This document shows positions 4,627 to 25,482 of a DNA stretch of 27,780 nucleotides, piece after piece. Position 1 is the stretch's first letter. Every line of letters begins with the position of its first letter. A program made the position numbers and the translations under genes. The DNA is from a virus (taxonomy: Duplodnaviria; Caudoviricetes): positions 1 through 27,780 of the IMG/VR virus record IMGVR_UViG_3300044267_004781. The stretch is one strand, 5' to 3'. The notes under the pieces were generated by a model that had not been told where the DNA came from, made no database searches, and saw nothing but the letters and a program-made list of their open reading frames with translations.

Positions 4627-4749
4627 TTATTGTTTTTTATCGTTTTTTAATTCAGTTAATATATTATCTAAGACCTTATTTAGCTTAGGTAATTCTCTTA
4701 TTATTGTTTCTAATGCTTGCATCTCTGCTTTGCTTATATAGTCTCTCAT
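4627..4749 (-). CDS. Small hypothetical protein (40 aa)
   Basis: MRDYISKAEMQALETIIRELPKLNKVLDNILTELKNDKKQ; ATGA-coupled to the upstream gene and fills the gap. Confidence 0.55.
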   Translation of the reverse strand: MRDYISKAEMQALETIIRELPKLNKVLDNILTELKNDKKQ

Positions 4750-5384
4750 ATTTTTCTATTTAAAAAGTTATTATATATATGTAAATTATTTGCAAAATGA
4801 TAATACTTACCTAATTCAACATCTAATTCATGAGATACTAATATCATTAATTTAGAAAAACAATACTGATCATTGCAAAATCCATACCAAAGATCATTAG
4901 ATCTCATCATTACATTCATATTTAATTTATTATCATATATATAAAAATTAATAGCATAAGTACAAGGAGTATCATTCTCCCAATTATACCTATCCTTTCC
5001 ATTGTATATACTAATTGATGCCCTTCTACTTTTAGGATTCTTTTTTAATTCATCAATAACATATTCTAATTGATTATTCTCTTGCCAATGACATCCATAA
5101 TTAGAATTAACATTTCCTTTCTCATCCATACATTTATACCATATCTTCGCATGTTTAGCTATCTCTTTAGCAGAACTATTTCCTGATTCATACCATCTCC
5201 ATTCTAGTTCAGCATAATCTTGTTTCCATTTTCTAGCTTTATTAGTTATAATATTATTACTCGGTTGATCTATTAAAAAACCAACATTGAATAAAGCTTT
5301 TGTATTATCAAAATCTACTCCAGCATTATTAATCATATTATACCAAAACTCGAAAGCTGTATTAGCGTCTATAAAATTTCTCAT
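4746..5384 (-). CDS. Thymidylate synthase-superfamily enzyme, dCMP hydroxymethylase-like
   Basis: NSNYG, SRRA, DTPCT (catalytic Cys), MRSNDLWYGFCND (Asp at the substrate-specificity position), NLHIY; only 212 aa. Confidence 0.85.
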   Translation of the reverse strand: MRNFIDANTAFEFWYNMINNAGVDFDNTKALFNVGFLIDQPSNNIITNKARKWKQDYAELEWRWYESGNSSAKEIAKHAKIWYKCMDEKGNVNSNYGCHWQENNQLEYVIDELKKNPKSRRASISIYNGKDRYNWENDTPCTYAINFYIYDNKLNMNVMMRSNDLWYGFCNDQYCFSKLMILVSHELDVELGKYYHFANNLHIYNNFLNRKI

Positions 5385-6274
5385 ATCACTACTCTTTTAA
5401 AATCTTTAAAATCACCCCAATCTCTATATGAATCAACATCCTCCCATTTTAATGTTGGTTTAGGAGCATCACCCGCTACATTAAAGAACCAATCTCCTTC
5501 TCTTCCATATTTCATCATATAGTGATAACCTTTAGAATCATAAGAAGGTTCACAATTAAATTCTTTTGGCACATAATCAGATACACTTTCAAATCTTTTG
5601 TGATATGAATGAAACATAGCACGTCCCAATTCTCCTTGTTGTATATTTCTAGCAACAGCAACATTATGAAACTTAGTATTAGGCAAAGCTATTTGAAGTG
5701 ATCTAGATAATACACCTGTAGAAATTACACACCACATTCTTTTAGGATGTTCCTTGTCTTTAAAATAATCATAAATAGATCTTACAGCTCCAGCAACAAC
5801 GTATTCATGTTGAAGTCCTAATGGTATAAAAAAAGCACCTTCTTGTTCTGCATATCTCTTTGCTATTTGATTAGCATTTGGCATCGCTGCTATCCTTAAG
5901 AATAATGGTTTTGCTCCATATTCTATACATAGTCTTTGATGATCTGATGATTTCTTAGATGCTGGCATTACTAACGTCAAATTCTTATTATACATCTGAC
6001 ATAAATAAGATAAACTAATACCCGCAAAACCTCGACGTGGTTGAACGTAAACTATTTCCTTATAGTTATTAAGTTTTGTCATTAAAAACTCACCAAACCT
6101 AGCCTTAGCACCTACTGGGTTAGATTGAGACTCATCTATTATATTAAAGCCATTACATTTAATAATTTTAAACGGTTTGAATGAACTTTTAAAATCTTTA
6201 GTTAGATCTAAATAATAATGTAGACCTTTATTATCTTTAATCTCATTTGGATTAGTTGTCTTATTTACATACAT
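5381..6274 (-). CDS. PLP-dependent enzyme, fold type II (cysteine synthase/ACC deaminase-like)
   Basis: NPVGAKAR (Schiff-base Lys), GFAGISLS, LVMP, YGAK, ISTGVL phosphate loop, EPSYDSKG. Confidence 0.8.
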   Translation of the reverse strand: MYVNKTTNPNEIKDNKGLHYYLDLTKDFKSSFKPFKIIKCNGFNIIDESQSNPVGAKARFGEFLMTKLNNYKEIVYVQPRRGFAGISLSYLCQMYNKNLTLVMPASKKSSDHQRLCIEYGAKPLFLRIAAMPNANQIAKRYAEQEGAFFIPLGLQHEYVVAGAVRSIYDYFKDKEHPKRMWCVISTGVLSRSLQIALPNTKFHNVAVARNIQQGELGRAMFHSYHKRFESVSDYVPKEFNCEPSYDSKGYHYMMKYGREGDWFFNVAGDAPKPTLKWEDVDSYRDWGDFKDFKRVVI

Positions 6275-8406
6275 GATACGAATTCTTTATATTTATTAAT
6301 ACCCCATTTTTGTTTCAATATACAATTATTCTCCATGATCTTTCCATTGTTTTTTTCTATATGATATTTAGATTGGTATTCTTTAAAATATCTAATAATA
6401 TCACAAAGCCTAGAATCTTCTACAGAATAAGGATTAGAATCATACCTATCAGCTAAAAATTGAATACAAGCACTTTCAAATTCTAATCTAGAACATTTAC
6501 CAACTTTTTTGAATATAAGATCTATACATTTTTTCGCATTAGTTCCTGCATATATCATTGAATTAGGATCTATGTACTTAGGATAGTATTCTGCTATATC
6601 CGCCATTGTTGCTGATAAAACAAAATTCTGTTTTTTAAATCCTTTTTGCTGTAAATATTTATTCATGTGATCGACGCATTCAATTATTGTTCTATCTTGA
6701 CCTTCCCATCTTATGAATTCATATAATTCACCAACTAAATCAAGACTCTCTTCTAATATGAATCTTTTTAAGTGTCCTCCTTTTTGATTTTCATAACTAA
6801 ATTGAGGTAACAAATAACCTTTATTATCTGTAAAAGGTTTATCAATTATTTGCAATTCTTTATACCAATCCTCCCAATTATAATTTCCATTTTTAATTAA
6901 ATCAACTAACCAAAAGTTTCCAAATCCATGTGTTCCGAAAGGTTTGTTATTAGTTTTAGGTTTGTAATTAATACCAGATCCACATAATCTAAATAGATAG
7001 AATAATAAAATCATTTCAAAATCACTTTTCATTGGATCAACTTTAACGAAGTATTTTCCATTTCCTTTTGGATCATCATCTCCTTTGAAGATAGCCTCTA
7101 AGAAGCTACTAAACGCAGCGTATCGTCGATCTAACATGTCATATATAGGTACATTAAATATAAGTGGATCATCTACTTTTTGAGCTAAACTATATATCTT
7201 CTCTTTGTCATAATAATGTTTTTGCATTAGTAAACTTTTTTCATGATACTCATCAATAGCCTCTAATACATCTTCATTAATTTCAAATACATTAAATACA
7301 TGACTACAATCATCTTGAGGTATTGGATTGAATTGAATAGGATAGTCGACTGAATCTTGATCGCTATATTTTCTATGATCAGGTATATTTATATTTTGTT
7401 GAACTTTAACACTTAGACCTCTTGAAATAAAATCATACATATAACTATGAGGAGCTAAATGAACACTAGATCCTGATTCCATGTTTTTAAAATCTAATCT
7501 GACTAAAGATCCACCAAGATTCCAATTTAAAATATTAATATTTTTTTTCAATATAAGTTGTTCTTGTAAATATAAATTAAATTGAACTACGCATTGAATT
7601 CTTTCTTCTCTAGTACCCCAAAATGGTTGGCCTTTATGATAACCTGTTTTTGGTATTTTTCTCGACTCATCTTCTATAGGTAATAGTTCAACGATCTCGA
7701 TTTCTTCTACCATTTTTCTTTTAATTAAATACTCGCACCCCCTAATATAAGAATCAACTAACTCTATAATAGCAATAGATCTATTTTCGTCATTAAAATA
7801 TAACCTACACAAATGATGCCTAACATCAATGTTTCCAAAATATAATCTCAACTTTTTTATTGGCTTTTTAAAATGTTCTAAATAGCTATATATTCCTTTA
7901 ACTAAAACACCATGCAATGTTTGTCCATCGTGTCTATCTATCACATATCTATCTTCAAATACAGATATAGCATGACTATCACCAAGCACAACGTTTTCAG
8001 GATCTAAAATATAAGGAGTTGGATTAATTTTTTTCGGCAAAGAATTTCTAGTAAATTTCAAATCAAACTTAAGATCGATATTTCTTTTCTCAACTAGATC
8101 CAGATAATTAGGTGCTTCATTTCCGTAAAAATATAAACTACCATCAAAATCATATAACTTATTTAATCTCAAAACTAATTTATCACTAACACCTCCAAAT
8201 AAATTCCAAACACCAGGCCTAAAATTAACACCCTCAGTGATATATAATATTTGATACCTATTCCAATCATCTTTCTCTGTTAAAAGATCTACCGTAGTTT
8301 CGTATTTAATTTCTAGTTGTGATCTTAATGTATAAGTCCAACCAGCATTGTGAGAAGTTTCTCTTTTTGAAGGATTCTGTAGTATCCCAATAATTCCTAT
8401 TTTCAT
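6265..8406 (-). CDS. Two-domain fusion: N-terminal SGNH/GDSL-like domain plus C-terminal helical putative DNA-base transferase (aGPT-PPlase-like)
   Basis: N-terminal GDSH, GNID and SVH motifs in SGNH block order; low-complexity linker; C-terminal IYDMLDRRYAAFS, LFRLCGSG, HGFGN, ADIAEYYP.YIDP, EDSRLCD; lies within a nucleotide-modification operon. Confidence 0.6.
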   Translation of the reverse strand: MKIGIIGILQNPSKRETSHNAGWTYTLRSQLEIKYETTVDLLTEKDDWNRYQILYITEGVNFRPGVWNLFGGVSDKLVLRLNKLYDFDGSLYFYGNEAPNYLDLVEKRNIDLKFDLKFTRNSLPKKINPTPYILDPENVVLGDSHAISVFEDRYVIDRHDGQTLHGVLVKGIYSYLEHFKKPIKKLRLYFGNIDVRHHLCRLYFNDENRSIAIIELVDSYIRGCEYLIKRKMVEEIEIVELLPIEDESRKIPKTGYHKGQPFWGTREERIQCVVQFNLYLQEQLILKKNINILNWNLGGSLVRLDFKNMESGSSVHLAPHSYMYDFISRGLSVKVQQNINIPDHRKYSDQDSVDYPIQFNPIPQDDCSHVFNVFEINEDVLEAIDEYHEKSLLMQKHYYDKEKIYSLAQKVDDPLIFNVPIYDMLDRRYAAFSSFLEAIFKGDDDPKGNGKYFVKVDPMKSDFEMILLFYLFRLCGSGINYKPKTNNKPFGTHGFGNFWLVDLIKNGNYNWEDWYKELQIIDKPFTDNKGYLLPQFSYENQKGGHLKRFILEESLDLVGELYEFIRWEGQDRTIIECVDHMNKYLQQKGFKKQNFVLSATMADIAEYYPKYIDPNSMIYAGTNAKKCIDLIFKKVGKCSRLEFESACIQFLADRYDSNPYSVEDSRLCDIIRYFKEYQSKYHIEKNNGKIMENNCILKQKWGINKYKEFVSCM

Positions 8407-8582
8407 AACGTTTTTTGTTTTTGTTTTTTTATTTTTTCCTGATTATATTTTTTCATATTACTTAAGAAGCTATCAGGCTTTAAGCTATCTAAAATAAAAT
8501 TCCCTTTGCAGACGAAACATCCGTCTATTTCTATGAGTGACATCCTTTGACACCTCAAACAAAATCTAAATTTTTGACTCAT
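8403..8582 (-). CDS. Small zinc-ribbon protein (59 aa, below ORF-track cutoff)
   Basis: MSQKFRFCLRCQRMSLIEIDGCFVCKG...; two CxxC motifs; ATGA overlaps at both ends. Confidence 0.7.
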   Translation of the reverse strand: MSQKFRFCLRCQRMSLIEIDGCFVCKGNFILDSLKPDSFLSNMKKYNQEKIKKQKQKTL

Positions 8583-8860
8583 TTCTTTTGATCTTTATAA
8601 TTGTTAATGTAATCATCTAACGCACCGATGTATGCAACCGCATCTAAGAGGTTATCTTTTTTATAATGATACGAATGTCTAGATAGTTTCAAAGCTACCA
8701 TACAAGCGTAAATATCCTCAGCAGTTAGATCTTTTCCTGTCATACCTTGAGCTATCTTCGCTGCTCTTTCCATACCAGCAGAAAACGGCCCATAAGATCT
8801 TTGTTTCTCTTCAGCTCTTTCATGAATTATTTCATGAGCCTCTTTTAATATATTTTTCAT
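8579..8860 (-). CDS. DUF6378-like helical protein (nucleotide-metabolism associated)
   Basis: ILKEAHEII..R...YG..., MVALKLSR, DNLLDAVAY. Confidence 0.8.
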   Translation of the reverse strand: MKNILKEAHEIIHERAEEKQRSYGPFSAGMERAAKIAQGMTGKDLTAEDIYACMVALKLSRHSYHYKKDNLLDAVAYIGALDDYINNYKDQKK

Positions 8861-10792: not shown

Positions 10793-11167
10793 TTATTTTT
10801 TTATTTTTTCGATACTTCTACCTCCAAAATAGGCTCCTACTACAGATATTAATACTAATTGAAGAAGATCCACCCATGAATCCTTGACATTAAATTCAAT
10901 AAAACCAGCATCTATAAATACAAGTGCCATTGTAGATGATATTAAAAAAGCTAATGTCAAAGGTCTAATGTTTTTACTAAGCCATGAATCACTACCCATA
11001 TCAGCTTTCCATCTTTCTGTTATATTCTTTTGAAGCTCAACCTCAGATTCTAATAACATTTTTTTCATTGCGTTTTTCAATGCTATCTTCTCTTCTTTAG
11101 TTGTAACTACATCATCTATTATTTGACTAGCATCACCAACTAAAGATTTCAACAATCCTTTTATCAT
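10793..11167 (-). CDS. Holin (3-TM / GTA-holin-like)
   Basis: RWKADM.SDSWLSKNIRP, hydrophobic helices, GAYFGGRS.EK. Confidence 0.85.
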   Translation of the reverse strand: MIKGLLKSLVGDASQIIDDVVTTKEEKIALKNAMKKMLLESEVELQKNITERWKADMGSDSWLSKNIRPLTLAFLISSTMALVFIDAGFIEFNVKDSWVDLLQLVLISVVGAYFGGRSIEKIKK

Positions 11168-11349
11168 ATTAATTCAAATCCAAAATTTAATATCATTAAT
11201 CTAAACCTTGCACAACTTCCTTTTTTGTTATCACATTTCCAGCAAGGACAAAGCATTAATTCAAACACTGTCAACGTGCTTATTCTCAATGCTAATTCGT
11301 ATCTATCTTTCTTGTTACCTGATCTCCAGGAATTTACCCAATTTATCAT
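11164..11349 (-). CDS. Small hypothetical protein in the lysis cassette
   Basis: 61 aa with 4 Cys, between endolysin and holin, coupled to the holin. Confidence 0.65.
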   Translation of the reverse strand: MINWVNSWRSGNKKDRYELALRISTLTVFELMLCPCWKCDNKKGSCARFRLMILNFGFELI

Positions 11350-11352
11350 ATT

Positions 11353-11820
11353 TTAAATCTTTTTTGTTATACTATTTTTATATTTAGTTTTACCATTTAC
11401 GTTTTTATAAGCCTCTAGTAATTGCTTTCTATTGTTATCTTTGTTATAAGAAATATGAATCCAACTATAATCAAACTCATTAATCATCTGATCAAAATCT
11501 AGATCCATTTCTAATACTGTATCAAAGATTAATTTATTATCTGATTTTCCATCGATAATTATATTAAGATCTACTGCTTGTCCTTTGCAATGTTGTGATC
11601 TTGAAGAACCACCGATTGCTTTATTTAATTCAACAGAACGATAGCCAGAATTAATTCTAATTGGTCCTAGTCTATTTCTAAGAGGTTGTAGAATTTTCAT
11701 AACTATAATCTGTAGATTTCTCACCACATCTTTGCTAGGATCATTTTCAATACCCAGTCTCAAAGCAGTATTGCTTTTTGTCATTTCATGTAAAGTGAAA
11801 TTTTTAGATAATCGCATCAT
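11353..11820 (-). CDS. Endolysin, peptidase M15A family
   Basis: LSKNFTL.E, INSGYRS..LN..IGGS..SQH.KGQAVD, WIHISY. Confidence 0.92.
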   Translation of the reverse strand: MMRLSKNFTLHEMTKSNTALRLGIENDPSKDVVRNLQIIVMKILQPLRNRLGPIRINSGYRSVELNKAIGGSSRSQHCKGQAVDLNIIIDGKSDNKLIFDTVLEMDLDFDQMINEFDYSWIHISYNKDNNRKQLLEAYKNVNGKTKYKNSITKKI

Positions 11821-12146
11821 TCGAATTTAGCTAAATATATTTTGTTAATATGTGATTGGATTTCTTTTTTAGTTACATCTAATTCCATCATTATATTAGC
11901 CTCAAACCTAACTACTTCAATATCATTATCTAATACAATAATAGTGGGTACTGCGAATATATTATATTTCTCCTGCAACTCAGGACTATCACATATAACT
12001 ACATTCGATTTCTCACAATCTTTAAGAGTAGTAATATCATAATCGTTATCAACATTCCAATCACTATTAAAATGTATTACACTAACTTGAGAATAACAAG
12101 CTAAACATAGTACACTACTTATTATTAATGTTATATAATTTCTCAT
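11817..12146 (-). CDS. Secreted thioredoxin-fold protein lacking CxxC
   Basis: Signal peptide ending ..CYSQ; HFNSDWN in place of F.A.WC..C; PELQEKYNIFAVPTIIVL....EVVRF cis-Pro motif. Confidence 0.7.
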   Translation of the reverse strand: MRNYITLIISSVLCLACYSQVSVIHFNSDWNVDNDYDITTLKDCEKSNVVICDSPELQEKYNIFAVPTIIVLDNDIEVVRFEANIMMELDVTKKEIQSHINKIYLAKFE

Positions 12147-12411
12147 CTAATTTATCGATTTTAGTTTCTATTTTATTCAATTGAGTTTGTTGATTTTCTA
12201 ATTGAGTTCCATTATTTAAAATTGTCTGACGTATCAACTGATCTTTTAGTTCAAATTCCTTTTCTGATATTGGCATCTTAGGAAGAGTTTTTGCTATTTC
12301 AACTTCTGCCATCAAAGTAAAATATGTTGCCGACAAAGATATTACAAAACCAACTATCATTATAATAGTTTTGAGATCTAATGTGAATTCTGACTTTTCG
12401 TTTATTTTCAT
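12115..12411 (-). CDS. Single-TM membrane protein with C-terminal coiled coil
   Basis: TM segment IIMIVGFVISLSATYFTL; heptads LNKIETKIDKLDEKL. Confidence 0.7.
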   Translation of the reverse strand: MKINEKSEFTLDLKTIIMIVGFVISLSATYFTLMAEVEIAKTLPKMPISEKEFELKDQLIRQTILNNGTQLENQQTQLNKIETKIDKLDEKLYNINNK

Positions 12412-12908
12412 TTTAATCTATATTTAATTTGTCCATTTACTATATAAATTCCTTTTGGCTCTTTGATCTCGTGACCTAATATATTATAGATCTTATTGTT
12501 AGTTGTAGATTTTAATAATATTTCTTGAAGAGCAGTATCACATGGGATTCCAGAATCGCAATCAATATATTCTGTGATTATAACATCTATAAATTCTGTG
12601 ACAGTGATCGTGTCATATATATTTTCATACACATAAATAGTATCACAAGGTTCAGGACCATAAGATCCACAATCCTCTAATGTTGTAGGAATAGCTTCAT
12701 TTTCATCAGAACCATCCACACAGTCCAACCAGCCATCGTTAAGGTAATAAAGATCAGGGCCATTAGGCACGCAACCATTAGGACTATACTGAGTCCAATT
12801 AGATTCATCATCGCCACAATAAAAACCATTTTGTTCCACACATAATTCACAATTCGTTTGACTAAAAGCATAGCTAGATATAAATAATATAAATAATAAT
12901 TTTTTCAT
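12408..12908 (-). CDS. Secreted protein with LDL-receptor class A-like motif and T9SS-type C-terminal sorting signal
   Basis: Signal peptide MKKLLFILFISSYAFSQ; FYC...GCV...NDGWLDCVDGSDE; C-terminus IYNILGHEIKEPKGIYIVNGQIKYRLK. Confidence 0.7.
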   Translation of the reverse strand: MKKLLFILFISSYAFSQTNCELCVEQNGFYCGDDESNWTQYSPNGCVPNGPDLYYLNDGWLDCVDGSDENEAIPTTLEDCGSYGPEPCDTIYVYENIYDTITVTEFIDVIITEYIDCDSGIPCDTALQEILLKSTTNNKIYNILGHEIKEPKGIYIVNGQIKYRLK

Positions 12909-12909
12909 T

Positions 12910-13929
12910 TTAAAACATTAAATAGTTAAAACCAAATTTGCACTCATATACTGGTATATTCCAATATCGTTGGTGTGTTCCTTCTACAAAGATTCCAAAA
13001 TGTTTGTTGACTCTAATTCCTAGAATGAGACCAGAATCCCAATCTAATTGTTCTAGATCTTCTCCATATTCAAAAGAATAATCATCTAGTCCATAATGAT
13101 ACGGCATAACGTTAGCCCAAAAATGCATCCAATAGTTATCATGATAATTATAATAAGCTAATCCTACAACACCACTGATTTCATTTTGATCTCCAATTTT
13201 ATTCAATTCCCTTTCATTAAAAGATGCAACAGCGTCTCCAAAATAGTGCTTATAAAACTCATCATTTGAAGTTGCTATCAATTCACCTTCATTGAACCAA
13301 TGCCATGATCCATTTACAAACTCAGTACTATAACCGAATTCGCCTGCTAACTGTGAAAATGATTGTTCCCCTGGCGTCCAAAAATCTTCTATTGGATTCA
13401 CTCCATAAACAGGATGTCTTCTAAAGCAAACTCCAAATGTTAGATCCCATTTGCCCTTATTAATTCTATATCTAGTGTCTATAGAATTATACATTAGATT
13501 AACTCTTTGATTGTCCTTATGTTGAACTTTAGTCACACATCTAGATCCTAAATAACGCAGCCAAAAATTCTTCTCAGTAAACTTGTCACCTCTATTTCTT
13601 ATAAAAGAATAGTTAGCTAAATACTCCCATCCCATAGCATTTCCAATTGTTACATTATCTGCTACAGCTTTCTCAGTTCCATAGTACCATGTTTTTACTT
13701 TATACTCATAATCAAAACGAGCAATCTTTCTTACTCCAAATGTTAAATTATAATCGTAGTCATTTATTTGAGTTATATCTTCATAACCCTTGTCAATAGC
13801 CATATAGTTTTCTCTTTCCATCATACTAGTATTCATACTCATAGAAGTATAGAATGTTGAGTATTTTAAAAAGTCAATTTGACTATAACATTGTGCTGTG
13901 ATAAATAATAATATTAATATATATTTCAT
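12910..13929 (-). CDS. Putative outer-membrane beta-barrel protein
   Basis: Signal peptide, many amphipathic aromatic beta-strands, C-terminal YECKFGFNYLMF ending in Phe. Confidence 0.65.
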   Translation of the reverse strand: MKYILILLFITAQCYSQIDFLKYSTFYTSMSMNTSMMERENYMAIDKGYEDITQINDYDYNLTFGVRKIARFDYEYKVKTWYYGTEKAVADNVTIGNAMGWEYLANYSFIRNRGDKFTEKNFWLRYLGSRCVTKVQHKDNQRVNLMYNSIDTRYRINKGKWDLTFGVCFRRHPVYGVNPIEDFWTPGEQSFSQLAGEFGYSTEFVNGSWHWFNEGELIATSNDEFYKHYFGDAVASFNERELNKIGDQNEISGVVGLAYYNYHDNYWMHFWANVMPYHYGLDDYSFEYGEDLEQLDWDSGLILGIRVNKHFGIFVEGTHQRYWNIPVYECKFGFNYLMF

Positions 13930-21351: not shown

Positions 21352-21801
21352 CTATGCATTCGCCATTGTTAACGCACCTGATCCTTGAATAGAAATACTA
21401 TATGTACTCCATTCAGCTACAGAACCGCTAACAGACAACGAAGTTATAAATCCATACCCTGTCCATTTCTGAACTGCTGTTTGACCAGTAGCAGTATGAA
21501 ATTTAACCGCAATTTTATACCCGTTTTTCATAGCAGTGAATATAGTACTTGGTCTAACCGTTTCTGTACCAACACTACCATCAGTATAAAATGCATCACA
21601 GTCTATAGTCCATGAATTAACTCCACTAATAAAGGCCTTATGCCCTTGACTATCCTTATTTGTTATATCGATCGTTTCTTGATTAACATTGAATGTACAA
21701 GAAGTTGAACCTCCTATCACTTCTACATCAGTTAAACTAGGTGTTGAAGTATCATCAATTGATAAAATAAGATCAGATCCTGAAATTGTTTTTACAGCCA
21801 T
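21352..21801 (-). CDS. Major tail tube protein, paralog 2 (TP901-1-like)
   Basis: ISGSDL, STSCT, IDITNKDS, SWTIDCD, GYGFITSLS, YSISIQGSGAL. Confidence 0.88.
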   Translation of the reverse strand: MAVKTISGSDLILSIDDTSTPSLTDVEVIGGSTSCTFNVNQETIDITNKDSQGHKAFISGVNSWTIDCDAFYTDGSVGTETVRPSTIFTAMKNGYKIAVKFHTATGQTAVQKWTGYGFITSLSVSGSVAEWSTYSISIQGSGALTMANA

Positions 21802-21836
21802 CTTTTTTTAACTTTAATTTATTATTTATTTATTTA

Positions 21837-22292
21837 TTACCCTTGCGCTAATGCTCCTGTTCCTTGTATACTTACTGTATATGTACCAGCATCCTCAGTG
21901 CCACCAGAAGCGCTTATAGAAGTTATGTAACCATTACCACTATATGTTGCTGAAGATCCCTGAAATTCTACTGCAACGTATCTAGGATATTGAACAACGC
22001 CATTTTGTGAAGGTTCACTATCACCATACATAGCTGGGAATAAAGTTTGCATATCATCAGTTCCATCCTCATTATAGAAAACGTCAGCGTCCATTGTCCA
22101 TGAAGAACTTAAACCATGAAATTCTTTTCTATCGCCTGATTGTTTGTCTGTTACTTCTCCTGTATCAACAGTTATCGAGACGGTACAACTTGTAGCCGCA
22201 GCAATAGCCGTTAAAGTACCTGTTGAAGGAGTTTCAGAGTCGCCTGGATTAACTTTTAGAACCATATCAGTTCCATTTATAATTGTAGCCAT
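21837..22292 (-). CDS. Major tail tube protein, paralog 1 (TP901-1-like)
   Basis: INGTDM, ATSCT, EVTDKQS, SWTMDAD, GNGYITSIS, YTVSIQGTGAL. Confidence 0.88.
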   Translation of the reverse strand: MATIINGTDMVLKVNPGDSETPSTGTLTAIAAATSCTVSITVDTGEVTDKQSGDRKEFHGLSSSWTMDADVFYNEDGTDDMQTLFPAMYGDSEPSQNGVVQYPRYVAVEFQGSSATYSGNGYITSISASGGTEDAGTYTVSIQGTGALAQG

Positions 22293-22522: not shown

Positions 22523-23908
22523 TTATTTTAATAATTTATACTTATTCAATATATAATTTTTTGCTTGATTATATATTATCCCTCCAGGAGAGAATGGCGT
22601 GATAGCGTTATCGTTAGCATCTGATCTTTTCTCAGTAGCTACGAATCCCATAGTTTCGTAAATATCAAAACCCGCGCTAAAAGCACCACCATATTTTCCT
22701 ATATTTCCCCATCCAATTCCTCCACTTATTGAATCTGTTGTTCCAGAGATCATACTATTCTCTATTTGTCCCGTAGTTTTATTTGGATTGTAATCAGAGT
22801 TAAAGTACTCATACCATCCTCTTCCAGTATATGCCCCTCCAATTTTACTAGGAATACCTCCAAAGCTAAGTGCTAAAAAATGAACGTCAGCATCCCAGTA
22901 TTTTGTTGAATCTGTTTCAGATAAAAGTGTATTTGATGCACTAATATCTGTAAAATCATCATTGAAATTTACTTCTATTTTTATATCAGATCCTATCTTA
23001 GAATGTGATACTAATATTTGTTTAGCGTTACCATTTTCAGGAGTACCATTTAGATAGTTATAATCTTCTGTACCTGTTGGCTTATATACAATAATAAACA
23101 ATCCGCCGTATGGTATTTCAAATTGACCAGAACCATATCCTGTTGGATCTTCAATTCCTAAAATATCATCATCGCCAAAAGTAATTTTAGCAGGGAGAGT
23201 GGGAGTAGCATGATTCCAAATTGGTCTATAATCAAAAGCAGGATTATTTCCATAAGCTGATTCCCACTTACCACCCCAAACAGTTGGAGTAGCTCCATCA
23301 AAAGCTAATGTTGGTCGTATAACTCTATTATATACCCAAGCAACAGTGTTACCACTTGACAATGGTGGAGAATTCCAGTACGTGCCTAAATATTTTAGTC
23401 CAAAATCTAAGTGAAAAAATAATGGAGTAGTAGTTTTATCATCATAACACAATCTCAAAATATCATCATACCAAAGGACGTTATATGTATCTATTTTACT
23501 ATACAATAATAGGTCTTCGTCATAATAATCTTCTGATCTATCAAAAATTATTTTATCAAAATCTATATTATCAATAATGTTGTGAGTATAGCCATCATTA
23601 TCTGGATAAGAAGGTAAACCATCTTGACCAGTAGACTGGCTATCAGTGAAACTATCTAATAGATCTCTAACCTTTTCTGACAACAAATTAACCTGATCAT
23701 AACTTTCTCCTTTTATTTTTAAACTAAGAGATGTTTTTCTTTGGTTAGGGAATTGATCTTTTGACTTTTCAAAAGTAGTAAAACAAGAATATATTATACG
23801 AGGATAATCTGTTCCAGGATCTTGAGGGTTAATCACAGGATAAACCCCACCAGCAGATAACTCTGATATATTGTCCGTTAATAATTTATATACAAACTTT
23901 CCGATCAT
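22523..23908 (-). CDS. Tail terminator/completion-like (DUF3168-like) domain fused to a LamG/ConA-like domain, paralog 2
   Basis: MIGKFVYKLL...VYPVINPQ...YPRIIY...SYDQV..LSEKVRDLL; about 300-aa beta-rich extension ending YILNKY. Confidence 0.65.
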   Translation of the reverse strand: MIGKFVYKLLTDNISELSAGGVYPVINPQDPGTDYPRIIYSCFTTFEKSKDQFPNQRKTSLSLKIKGESYDQVNLLSEKVRDLLDSFTDSQSTGQDGLPSYPDNDGYTHNIIDNIDFDKIIFDRSEDYYDEDLLLYSKIDTYNVLWYDDILRLCYDDKTTTPLFFHLDFGLKYLGTYWNSPPLSSGNTVAWVYNRVIRPTLAFDGATPTVWGGKWESAYGNNPAFDYRPIWNHATPTLPAKITFGDDDILGIEDPTGYGSGQFEIPYGGLFIIVYKPTGTEDYNYLNGTPENGNAKQILVSHSKIGSDIKIEVNFNDDFTDISASNTLLSETDSTKYWDADVHFLALSFGGIPSKIGGAYTGRGWYEYFNSDYNPNKTTGQIENSMISGTTDSISGGIGWGNIGKYGGAFSAGFDIYETMGFVATEKRSDANDNAITPFSPGGIIYNQAKNYILNKYKLLK

Positions 23909-25482
23909 TAGTTACTAGTTTTTTTCCACCAACCATACTTCCCTATTATCTCCTTTTTGATTTTCATATACTTGTTGCTACCAAATTCTAAATACTCAGG
24001 CCAAACAACCATGTCGTACAAATTCATCGCTGCGTTAGGATTAATAGGATCTATCCACCCTCCTGCCTCTGGATCATAATTAGAAACATCAGTATGTATA
24101 GTAGAGAAATTGAAAAAATACTCTGCCCAATCAGACAAGTAAGACGCATCTGAATAACCATAGTAAATATTATTGTCAGCGCCATCATCTGTAAAATCAC
24201 TACTAGCAACAAAATCAAATTTACCCTCTACTTTAGTATTATCATCAGGTTTTCTTCTAAATGATACTGCTATGAAAAATGGTTTTGTCAATGTTAAAGT
24301 TGGATTAATACCTAGAAAAGGCCATGATATTATAGTTCCTGAAGTAAAATTCAACCCTCTATCTTTCCCATCTTCTTGAAGTCCTATTCCACCGAAATTC
24401 ATTTTTAGTACAGCTCCTCCACTAACAGAAACACAACCCGCATAAATCATTCCAGATGGATAAGTACCACTAGCAGTATCACCATATAAAATAGCTGATT
24501 CTTTTGAAGATGTTATAGAGTCTGGTATGTCCATAACAAAAAAAGCTGTTCCTTCTTTATATTTTCTATCACGTCTTTCTGTTAACTGTAATGATCGTAA
24601 ATACTTGCTTGTACCGAACTCTAAATAATTAGATCCAATTGTATAAGGTAAATCTACTATTGATTTTTTGATATTAGGTCTATTTGTATTGGATGGATTT
24701 GATACTGTTCCTGAATCATCATACCATATATCATACATACCATTTGAACTAGTATCACTAACATTATTAGTTTCAGCACAACACGATGGTGAGTATAAAT
24801 AATTAACTCCTTGATCCATAGCTACAGGTTGTGTATATAATGGATCATCAGTAGAATTAATGTTAGTAGCCATTAAATTTAGATCATGAATATTTAAAGA
24901 TATATCGGCTCCCCATGTTGAAAAATCATCCTTAGTAGATAGAGTAAAATTCAATATATTCCTATACTCATATAAATCATCGTTATAAGTTTCTAAACAG
25001 TTTTCAAAATTCATAGCTATTACCTGTATTCCTCCAAAGTATTGTATTAATCCTGTTGAAGGAGGACAATACTCTCCCCATATTTTGTGCCCAGCAGATG
25101 ACTTAATACCTGTTCCATAAAAAATATCAGTAACGGAATTTATAGGATTTTTATATCTAGACAATAGATCTATAATTAAAGAACTTATTCTAGTGACCGT
25201 AGAATAGCTAGAATCAACAACATCTATTGTTATATCATAATTATTTCTTGGTGATCTGGTATAGCCTTTTATGTCTGATGGATCATTTTTTTCAACAGTA
25301 TAAATTATATAAGGACTAGGATCTGGTAAATTAGTTCCGTATGTTCCAACTGTTTGAGGTTTTATATTAGGATATATTCTACCAGCTACTTCCTTATTTA
25401 TTCTATAAGCAGCGTTATCTGGATCTGTAGAATAATAAGTTGGCGCACCTGTTAATAATGAATATATAAATTTCCCTACCAT
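23908..25482 (-). CDS. Tail terminator/completion-like (DUF3168-like) domain fused to a LamG/ConA-like domain, paralog 1
   Basis: MVGKFIYSLL...RIYPNIKPQ...PYIIY...SYSTV..ISSLIIDLL; about 330-aa beta-rich extension ending IIGKYG. Confidence 0.65.
   Translation of the reverse strand: MVGKFIYSLLTGAPTYYSTDPDNAAYRINKEVAGRIYPNIKPQTVGTYGTNLPDPSPYIIYTVEKNDPSDIKGYTRSPRNNYDITIDVVDSSYSTVTRISSLIIDLLSRYKNPINSVTDIFYGTGIKSSAGHKIWGEYCPPSTGLIQYFGGIQVIAMNFENCLETYNDDLYEYRNILNFTLSTKDDFSTWGADISLNIHDLNLMATNINSTDDPLYTQPVAMDQGVNYLYSPSCCAETNNVSDTSSNGMYDIWYDDSGTVSNPSNTNRPNIKKSIVDLPYTIGSNYLEFGTSKYLRSLQLTERRDRKYKEGTAFFVMDIPDSITSSKESAILYGDTASGTYPSGMIYAGCVSVSGGAVLKMNFGGIGLQEDGKDRGLNFTSGTIISWPFLGINPTLTLTKPFFIAVSFRRKPDDNTKVEGKFDFVASSDFTDDGADNNIYYGYSDASYLSDWAEYFFNFSTIHTDVSNYDPEAGGWIDPINPNAAMNLYDMVVWPEYLEFGSNKYMKIKKEIIGKYGWWKKTSN

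Follow-up and report, generated by a model that had tools for sequence, protein, structure and literature searches.

Why would a phage place genes for membrane and exported proteins directly beside its endolysin? The question is raised by virus record IMGVR_UViG_3300044267_004781 of IMG/VR, all 27,780 bases of which form the window that we analyzed. All of the real genes in the window are on the minus strand. Four of them, at 11817..13929, encode a predicted outer-membrane beta-barrel, a putative surface cargo for secretion by the type IX system (T9SS), a single-pass, coiled-coil inner-membrane protein that we call the rod, and an exported protein with a thioredoxin fold. Our leading reading, to which we give somewhat less than an even chance, is that in marine Bacteroidota phages these genes add an accessory system of envelope proteins to the lysis cassette, most likely one that regulates lysis.

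Genes for an HK97-type capsid, a neck, a tail tube, and a tape measure come first; the four-gene region follows, and then an M15 endolysin, a 61-amino-acid gene, a holin, a metallophosphoesterase, and replication genes. The first-pass annotation of this DNA had described four tightly packed genes for exported or membrane proteins, the last of them coupled to the endolysin, and this description holds. The barrel and cargo genes are separated by 1 nt, the cargo and rod genes overlap by 4 nt, the rod and thioredoxin-fold genes overlap by 32 nt, and the thioredoxin-fold gene overlaps the endolysin gene by 4 nt (ATGA). The set reads as part of a late operon, with no space for its own promoter. A promoter scan, which covered the sigma-70 type only, gave 22 sites versus 30±5.6 in shuffled sequences, and we found neither room nor signal for a promoter or terminator belonging to the set.

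To recognize export signals, we used our own heuristic (a small residue plus Gln following a hydrophobic stretch). Such a signal is present in nearly all relatives of three of the proteins (118/121 barrels, 100/101 cargos, and 98/102 thioredoxin-fold proteins) and in 0/37 lysins and 0/51 holins. These signals bear on the explanation that the four genes close the tail operon and encode virion proteins of the usual kind. The site directly after the tail genes would suit this, as would a weak match of the window's rod to PHROG 16215, "virion structural protein" (E 0.001). However, three of the four proteins have conserved cleavable signal peptides and the fourth has a transmembrane helix. Also, the set is common to phages with different flanking and structural gene sets, including some that bear GroEL, on contigs of 27-160 kb. 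We consider a virion role very improbable.

The 339-residue barrel has no match in Pfam, PHROG, or NCBIfam. Of 958 candidates, 270 were relatives at E≤0.001, and a search at the 50% level gave 315. An AlphaFold2 model from 120 sequences (predicted local distance difference test score, or pLDDT, of 77; predicted template modelling score, or pTM, of 0.72) bears out the earlier prediction of an outer-membrane barrel: as we read its DSSP string, it has 12 long amphipathic membrane strands and a 75-residue outer loop. The protein combines a signal peptide, an even number of amphipathic strands, and a C-terminal aromatic signal, and its fold matches are outer-membrane barrels. The top Foldseek match is NanC (E 1.4e-4, template modelling score 0.34, identity 8%), and CymA matches with Z 10.6 and a root-mean-square deviation of 5.7 over 209 residues, tied with other entries. 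Compared with the NanC/KdgM, OMPLA, LpxR, PorV, and Lom families, the best template modelling score is 0.34 at 7-11% identity, which are generic fold matches, and PorV is absent among the best 50 matches listed. One viral model resembles the barrel at a score of 0.73.

Two parts of the barrel stand out. Going by strand alternation, the conserved residues R67, E102, R125, K134, R153, R155, R170, H172, W267, H269, E316, and N335 would face the lumen. And the 31-residue loop after strand 2 (residues 69-99), which would be periplasmic, has a mean conservation of 0.54, the same as the strands, versus 0.34 and 0.39 for the outer loops L1 and L5; pLDDT is below 50 at residues 71-90. Both assignments come from the secondary-structure string rather than from coordinates. 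The loop is a candidate dock for a periplasmic partner or a candidate lumen plug. The barrel as a whole is kept, at high conservation, across phages with different gene sets: over the same 35 loci, its conservation is 61%, versus 58% for the lysin and 42% for the holin. As an aside, distant barrels (P0124-P0146) have D-x-N/D-x-N/D-G repeats in their large outer loop, which we take to resemble calcium-binding motifs and which are missing from the window's barrel.

Could the barrel be a channel for an anionic nutrient, like NanC or KdgM, with the thioredoxin-fold protein as its periplasmic binding protein? The NanC match is compatible with such auxiliary uptake, and so are the conserved basic residues that would point inward (R67, R125, K134, R153, R155, and R170) and a chromosome that has the barrel alone. 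But the fold matches are generic, no transporter or metabolic gene accompanies the barrel, which is coupled to lysins and is rare in cells (3 of the 401 Flavobacteriales genomes searched match its profile). Uptake seems improbable to us.

The thioredoxin-fold protein matches solved thioredoxins by profile, down to E 7e-13, and keeps their Trp and cis-Pro positions, but its active site is NxxN in 102/102 relatives and CxxC in 0/102, so dithiol chemistry is impossible for it. The claim of a secreted thioredoxin-fold protein thus stands, with the addition that the protein is redox-inactive. It more likely binds something than does redox chemistry, and the invariant Asn pair suggests a binding surface. 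It has its own C-terminal motif, distinct from the thioredoxin family. The signal of the window's copy carries a Cys that is not conserved in relatives. There were no fused or longer forms among 8,000 candidates, which is weak evidence.

Judging from hydropathy only, the rod next to it is a type II inner-membrane protein with a periplasmic helical domain: it has one transmembrane helix in 104/104 relatives, as had been expected, with more Lys and Arg before the helix than after it and a C-terminal part of 55-85 amino acids. No member of the set is more widespread than the rod, which has 7,996 or more relatives at the 90% level (8,000 candidates were scored). The rod and thioredoxin-fold genes are adjacent in 123/125 loci, and their distance matrices agree best among the set (rho 0.73, n=101), although linkage alone could produce this agreement. 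In one metatranscriptome dataset, a single 247-nt contig covers the rod gene at a depth of 2.2; we do not count this as evidence of expression. A second, related single-transmembrane rod gene (PHROG 20984) lies immediately before the M15 lysin in some phages (L148 9811-10137, L346, and L350).

Which of these genes depend on which others? The loci are related, and the counts that follow are not independent. We identified 120 distinct barrels from 155 loci. Where 5 kb downstream was available, the rod and the thioredoxin fold were present in 70/73, so the expected synteny is found, and the LDLa cargo was present in 63/73. This last count is biased by anchoring on the barrel. In the 66 loci that were anchored on the thioredoxin fold and have 5 kb upstream (not dereplicated), we found the rod in 66, the barrel in 63, the LDLa cargo in just 19, and any cargo with a T9SS C-terminal domain (CTD) in 37. 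Also, twelve loci among those with the most similar thioredoxin folds have the barrel, the rod, the thioredoxin fold, and the M15 lysin, without cargo. So the four-gene module of the first-pass annotation keeps its envelope targeting and its synteny, but it resolves into a core of three genes and a cargo that is optional, and a four-part span from the inner membrane to the surface is therefore not required.

Searches that began from the lysis genes give the rest of the picture. Of the 68 loci with room that were anchored on the holin or the lysin, 49 have none of the core, 4 have the rod only, 6 have the rod and the thioredoxin fold, and 9 have all three; neither the barrel alone nor the thioredoxin fold alone was found in these loci. 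A barrel profile search of five records with the rod or the pair, four of them CheckV-complete, found no barrel, and the same profile does find barrels elsewhere. The complete genomes with the pair and no barrel are L346 and L381. Among five barrel contigs that lack a nearby thioredoxin fold, three encode it at another site; the remaining two have a completeness of 19-25%. Because barrel-free complete genomes exist, while most barrel contigs that lack the thioredoxin fold close by still encode it, the dependence is nested from the inner membrane outward: the rod, then the rod and the thioredoxin fold, then both with the barrel, and then the optional cargo. A protein of 70-74 amino acids with two transmembrane helices and no family match is often inside or beside the set (40 distinct proteins in 51 loci, for example L113 7630-7854); it is absent from the window.

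A few copies of the core are in bacterial chromosomes. Scanning 185,579 genomes for the pattern turned up 12 loci, mostly phage-like contigs in bins of discordant taxa. The trio is next to host genes in two Flavobacteriaceae bins (one contig has housekeeping genes), and the barrel is alone in a third genome. The dN/dS ratio (nonsynonymous to synonymous divergence) of the two trio copies is about 0.3, like that of a host flank gene; their dS is higher, so this may reflect selection in phages. Retention of the trio by selection in the cell is only suggested, because both trio contigs end at the thioredoxin-fold gene and the trio is more diverged than its flank (dS 0.3-1.3 vs 0.09). In a quick tree of barrels, the chromosomal L165 groups with the phage contig L162 (Shimodaira-Hasegawa-like approximate likelihood ratio test 99) on long branches, and we draw no direction of transfer from this.

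The core is tied to lysins. Leaving out two chromosomal loci, a lysin-type gene is within 2.5 kb in 65 of the 72 distinct barrel loci with room, and within 100 nt in 38. These lysins are from different families (M15 in 31, DUF5675 in 18, PHROG 3000/33083 in 14, and other in 2). The reverse search gave 41/48.

We infer the following contacts and roles. The rod, in the inner membrane, would be an auxiliary holin-type protein or would control the holin. The redox-dead thioredoxin fold would bind the rod's periplasmic helix, much as the T4 antiholin RI binds the holin T. The barrel would dock this pair through its conserved periplasmic loop, and its lumen, lined with conserved Arg, His, and Trp, might pass or sense a cue from outside. 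Conditions outside the cell, or a second infection, would then determine whether lysis is delayed or released. The cargo would be a separate add-on, which the host's T9SS would export and whose stalk the host's glycosylation would decorate, so that the product coats the infected cell before lysis. We favor a regulator because the rod and its exported partner are laid out like T and RI of T4, with the barrel as an extension outward, and because it explains both the barrel-free phages and the harmless chromosomal copies: a regulator would do no harm in a chromosome, and so the chromosomal trios are compatible with it.

Several observations weigh against a lysis regulator. Pfam and PHROG scans of 72 rod proteins found no named family, and there was no T, RI, or holin family among the matches; the best lysis-class match was to PHROG 10340, in 1/72, at E 0.005. 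No lysin was seen in 7/72 barrel loci. A separate holin is present, and it is on the opposite strand in 8 of the 46 loci where we saw it. We take DUF5675 to be a lysin, and 18 of the 65 lysin calls depend on it; no solved relative of DUF5675 was found. Morons that are not lytic, such as bor of lambda, are also found in clusters close to lysis genes, and across lineages the same region is occupied by several other small genes that are unrelated. Finally, binding, localization, and phenotype are all predicted.

A rival explanation starts from what the window lacks. As had been pointed out, no canonical lipoprotein o-spanin is seen, free or embedded; barring an off-frame hydrophobic open reading frame and the non-conserved Cys in the thioredoxin-fold signal, there is no lipoprotein gene in the window. 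The core might then be a non-canonical spanin, in which the rod acts as i-spanin, the barrel takes the place of a lipoprotein o-spanin as the anchor in the outer membrane, and the thioredoxin fold forms a bridge between the two, so that the complex would fuse or rupture the membranes after the endolysin has acted. The lysin linkage (65/72 and 41/48) suits a spanin as well as it does a regulator, and the overlap of the rod and thioredoxin-fold genes resembles Rz/Rz1. A strict lipobox is present in 2/102 thioredoxin-fold proteins, 5/122 barrels, and no cargo or rod. No embedded Rz1-type frame was found in 104 rod, 102 thioredoxin-fold, 101 cargo, and 121 barrel genes. (The scan gave 9 matches, all starting inside rod genes, and 6 among the matches listed are the overlapping thioredoxin-fold genes.) By our heuristic, a lipoprotein is predicted near the lysin in just 1/84 cassettes with at least two core genes, versus 7/24 (or 8/24 under a looser rule) of those without the core. 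These counts exclude core genes and nested frames, which the separate scan covers, and they compare cassettes that are related and hosts that differ, since several of the 24 without the core seem to come from phages of other hosts. We also note that in L334 and L369 a rod-family match is close to a lipoprotein gene, which fits a spanin too.

Nevertheless, 16-17 of the 24 core-free cassettes also lack a lipoprotein, and the cassette of the cultured Nonlabens phage P12024L, which is core-free and has the same order of lysin, holin, and phosphoesterase, shows none. Bursting therefore does not depend on the set in these phages. The complete phages L346 and L381 have the rod and the thioredoxin fold and no barrel, and L346 also has no lipoprotein near its lysin. 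The periplasmic part of the rod is merely 55-85 amino acids, the invariant lumen and the 75-residue outer loop are more than an anchor requires, and intact copies exist in chromosomes. So the earlier suggestion of a non-canonical system for disrupting the outer membrane gains from the missing o-spanin and is weakened by the barrel-free complete phages (0/4 with a barrel) and by the chromosomal copies; on balance we think it rather unlikely. We had considered the absence of Cys from the rod (0/104) as an argument on this question, and we dropped it: 169/526 i-spanins also have no Cys. Some cultured phages of flavobacteria carry genes annotated as unimolecular spanins (PMC8776804).

Two other small proteins near the lysins deserve mention. 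The 61-amino-acid cationic protein between the endolysin and the holin contains Cys and has 34 distinct relatives in 44 loci, although one contig of a related phage skips it; it is itself a candidate for disrupting the outer membrane. And in a distant relative, the lysin is followed by a second small exported protein (L154 10764-11183) that looks beta-barrel-like by eye and has no family match.

What of the cargo? In our model, the 166-residue protein has a folded Cys-rich head (residues 17-80) and a linker that is disordered, and its tail consists of a helix and three strands (140-142, 153-157, and 160-164). The head contains just the calcium-binding half of an LDLa module. It has the acidic motif D-x-x-x-D-C-x-D-x-x-D-E, in which D58, D62, C63, D68, and E69 are invariant in 69 relatives, and it aligns with LRP1/VLDLR modules at E 0.005-0.02. 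PF00057 matches 42/69 relatives at E≤0.1 (the best is 4e-4), and the window's cargo itself has no match in Pfam or in the other family scans. A full LDLa module has a six-cysteine pattern. The cargo does not have this full pattern (the Cys before DG is Asn57), and the C-terminal half alone aligns. A Foldseek search gave weak LDLa matches only (E≥1.4) and no CTD.

The linker has a variable length and is built from D-T-[IVL] units: there are 6.1 per protein versus 0.88 after shuffling, the number is above chance in 101/101, and it correlates with length (r 0.94). The window's stalk is short, with only 3 O-glycosylation motifs. These units match the O-glycosylation motif of exported Bacteroidota proteins, D(S/T)(A/I/L/M/T/V) (PMC10897501), and the excess is absent from the barrel, the rod, and the thioredoxin-fold protein. 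The stalk is thus a predicted site of glycosylation; the alternative is a purely structural repeat.

The canonical long CTD (TIGR04183 or PF18962) is found in 0/69 cargos, and hhalign to three long CTDs gives a probability of 7%. Instead, the tail looks like a short CTD: motifs B, D, and E are present in 101, 91, and 93 of 101, with motif D as GxY in 72/101, and the tail spans 42-45 amino acids after the last Cys. Short T9SS CTDs are reported in PMC11969387 only for Prevotella intermedia. A profile of the tail matches 9/151 Flavobacteriales genomes, four of them at E 1e-18 to 1e-21. In those four, this stalk, Cys pair, and tail also form the end of unrelated host proteins, whose genes are surrounded by housekeeping genes, and the genomes encode SprA (4/4), PorU (3/4), and PorV (3/4). 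(The host proteins are in loci L174-L177, from genomes G046, G082, G102, and G144; their N-terminal parts are unrelated, and they share the glycosylation-motif stalk, Cys pair, and short CTD.) Given the tail shared with host proteins and the presence of these secretion genes, the T9SS reading of the cargo is well supported at the level of sequence. So the claim of a T9SS-tagged LDLa protein survives in its T9SS part and in its calcium motif, with two corrections: the LDLa is half a module, and the tag is a short CTD that TIGR04183 and PF18962 miss. The tail appears to be copied from the host, and its similarity, our only means of assignment, points to small-genome marine Flavobacteriales as the hosts. 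Almost certainly, the predicted cargo acts at the surface before lysis.

This raises the other serious rival, surface conversion apart from lysis. The barrel and the cargo would mask or bind receptors, as a Lom-like block to superinfection, or would alter adhesion or grazing; the rod and the thioredoxin fold would be factors for assembly or anchoring, and the site beside the lysis genes would only give late expression. The cargo fits well, as its secretion and glycosylation need an intact envelope and its tail is the host's own. At distant loci, other cargos take the slot beside the barrel or the trio, and 3/10 such genes tested pass TIGR04183. The trio in two Flavobacteriaceae genomes and the barrel alone in a third also suit this explanation, and there is a precedent in Lom, which is cited as blocking LamB (bioRxiv 2026.10.24.761521). 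On the other hand, cargo is often missing from the thioredoxin-anchored loci, the rod alone occurs beside a holin or lysin, and the barrel is highly conserved across differing gene sets, unlike a receptor-specific blocker. The set has neither space nor, on the sigma-70-type scan, a signal for a separate promoter or terminator, and the chromosomal copies diverge more than their flank and sit at contig ends. In short, surface remodelling, which had also been suggested for this locus, explains the cargo and misfits the core's tie to four lysin families; we find it about as doubtful as the spanin.

If we return to the regulator and combine it with the cargo, then the outer-membrane barrel might read an outside cue (a second phage, calcium, or an anionic solute) and pass it by way of the redox-dead thioredoxin to the rod, which would set the time of lysis, while the host's T9SS and O-glycosylation are borrowed for the coating. 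This fuller scheme is possible, but we hold it quite loosely. If true, it would be the first control of lysis with an outer-membrane sensor, in a group of uncultured marine phages that is among the most common.

The set is very common in marine metagenomes and is carried by many uncultured ocean phages of Flavobacteria. The barrel pattern is present in at least 584 confirmed stretches, and the window itself was found in 17 run entries from 15 studies, 8 of them with half of its words or more and one possibly its own source. The set has no match in 50,697 annotated phage records. In the literature, mostly outside the subscription journals, we found no description, named family, or isolate for the set of rod, NxxN thioredoxin, and barrel. 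Parts of it have precedents in print: 1,603 barrels of huge phages, whose supplementary list may include this family (bioRxiv 2026.10.24.761521), and the T9SS cargos of Cryophage (PMC7468147). The timing of lysis by Bacteroidota phages and their passage through the outer membrane are largely open questions. If the core is a regulator or a spanin, then it would be a previously undescribed component of lysis; if it converts the surface, then phages would be exploiting the T9SS and the protein glycosylation of their hosts. The nested dependence makes for a short series of experiments in a set order, and a candidate host lineage is named by the tail match.

The features are listed in Table 1. Elsewhere in the window, two groups of genes caught our attention, both on the minus strand. 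At 4746-8860, a thymidylate-synthase homologue (4746-5384), a pyridoxal-phosphate-dependent enzyme (5381-6274), a 713-residue protein of PHROG 13881/17781, and a DUF6378 protein are clustered, presumably resembling the thymidine hypermodification clusters of other phages. And at 21352-22292 and 22523-25482 there are two tail-tube paralogues in tandem (PF06199) and two long proteins whose N-terminal starts are alike and look like tail-completion proteins.

Table 1. Positions of the four-gene set, its lysis neighbors in the window, and the chromosomal copies.
Feature	Position	Strand	Details
Predicted outer-membrane beta-barrel, 339 aa	12910..13929	-	Signal peptide at 1-16; 12 strands predicted; large outer loop at 173-247; GFNYLMF at the C terminus; without a named family
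Barrel residues 69-99	13633..13725	-	Long conserved loop, putatively periplasmic by strand count, after the family's motif G-x-R-K-I-A-R-F
Optional cargo, T9SS-type by sequence, 166 aa	12408..12908	-	Signal peptide; Cys-rich head 17-80; half LDLa calcium motif; D-T-[IVL] stalk; short CTD
Putative C-terminal export tail of cargo (residues 124-166)	12408..12539	-	Helix and three strands; YxxxG, GxYI, and GxxK motifs
Single-transmembrane inner-membrane rod protein, 98 aa	12115..12411	-	Short N-terminal tail; transmembrane helix ~16-34; predicted periplasmic helical rod
Exported redox-inactive thioredoxin-fold protein, 109 aa	11817..12146	-	W-N-x-x-N replacing W-C-x-x-C; cis-Pro position kept
Peptidase M15 endolysin	11353..11820	-	PF08291 E 3e-18; PHROG 894 E 1e-39
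61-aa cationic Cys-containing protein, in the endolysin/holin interval	11164..11349	-	Conserved family; no Pfam, PHROG, or NCBIfam match
Holin	10793..11167	-	PHROG 3427 E 4e-29; PF11351 (gene transfer agent type) E 7e-5, just under cut-off
Chromosomal copies, Flavobacteriales bins	L165 7953-9847; L166 1957-3724; L168 1366-2580		Trio beside endonuclease gene; barrel alone amid housekeeping genes

How does this system compare with known ones? The thioredoxin family is matched by profile, and the Asn pair, the export, and the distinct C-terminal motif set our protein apart from it. Lom of lambda and the barrels of huge phages are likewise exported beta-barrels encoded by phages, and the blocking of receptors is a precedent for function, but Lom has 8 strands, whereas this barrel has 12 and comes with fixed companions in the inner membrane and the periplasm. 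The main text of that preprint (bioRxiv 2026.10.24.761521) does not mention thioredoxin or T9SS. The Cryophage cargos are phage genes with T9SS tails and variable passengers (PMC7468147); those are enzymes with canonical CTDs in variable islands, while ours is a stalk protein with a short CTD beside a barrel and lysis genes. A counterpart of that short CTD is known from Prevotella intermedia (PMC11969387), where it spans 43-55 amino acids: the cargo tail shares its motifs B, D, and E, has three strands in our model, and in many relatives comes with a T/GI-like cleavage site. The differences are that the cargo is encoded by a phage, its tail follows a helix and a Cys pair, the setting is marine and flavobacterial, and its secretion is predicted.

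Two-component spanins (lambda Rz/Rz1 and T4 PseT.3/PseT.2; PMC6139136) also pair a type II inner-membrane helical protein with an overlapping downstream gene for an exported protein. Here, however, there is no lipoprotein, the outer part would be an integral barrel, a soluble third protein would be involved, and some complete genomes dispense with the barrel. Bacteroidetes, Flavobacterium, and Cellulophaga are not mentioned in the main text of PMC6139136. The last comparison is with T and RI of phage T4. Our system is known from genes alone, and we found no sequence similarity to T or RI; its small partner has a thioredoxin fold, its holin is separate, and an outer-membrane barrel is added. 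But T has a short cytoplasmic tail, one transmembrane helix, and a periplasmic domain, and RI has a cleavable signal peptide (PMC11413866), so in both systems a single-transmembrane protein of this layout is paired with a small partner that bears a signal peptide, and in both the pair is linked to lysis.

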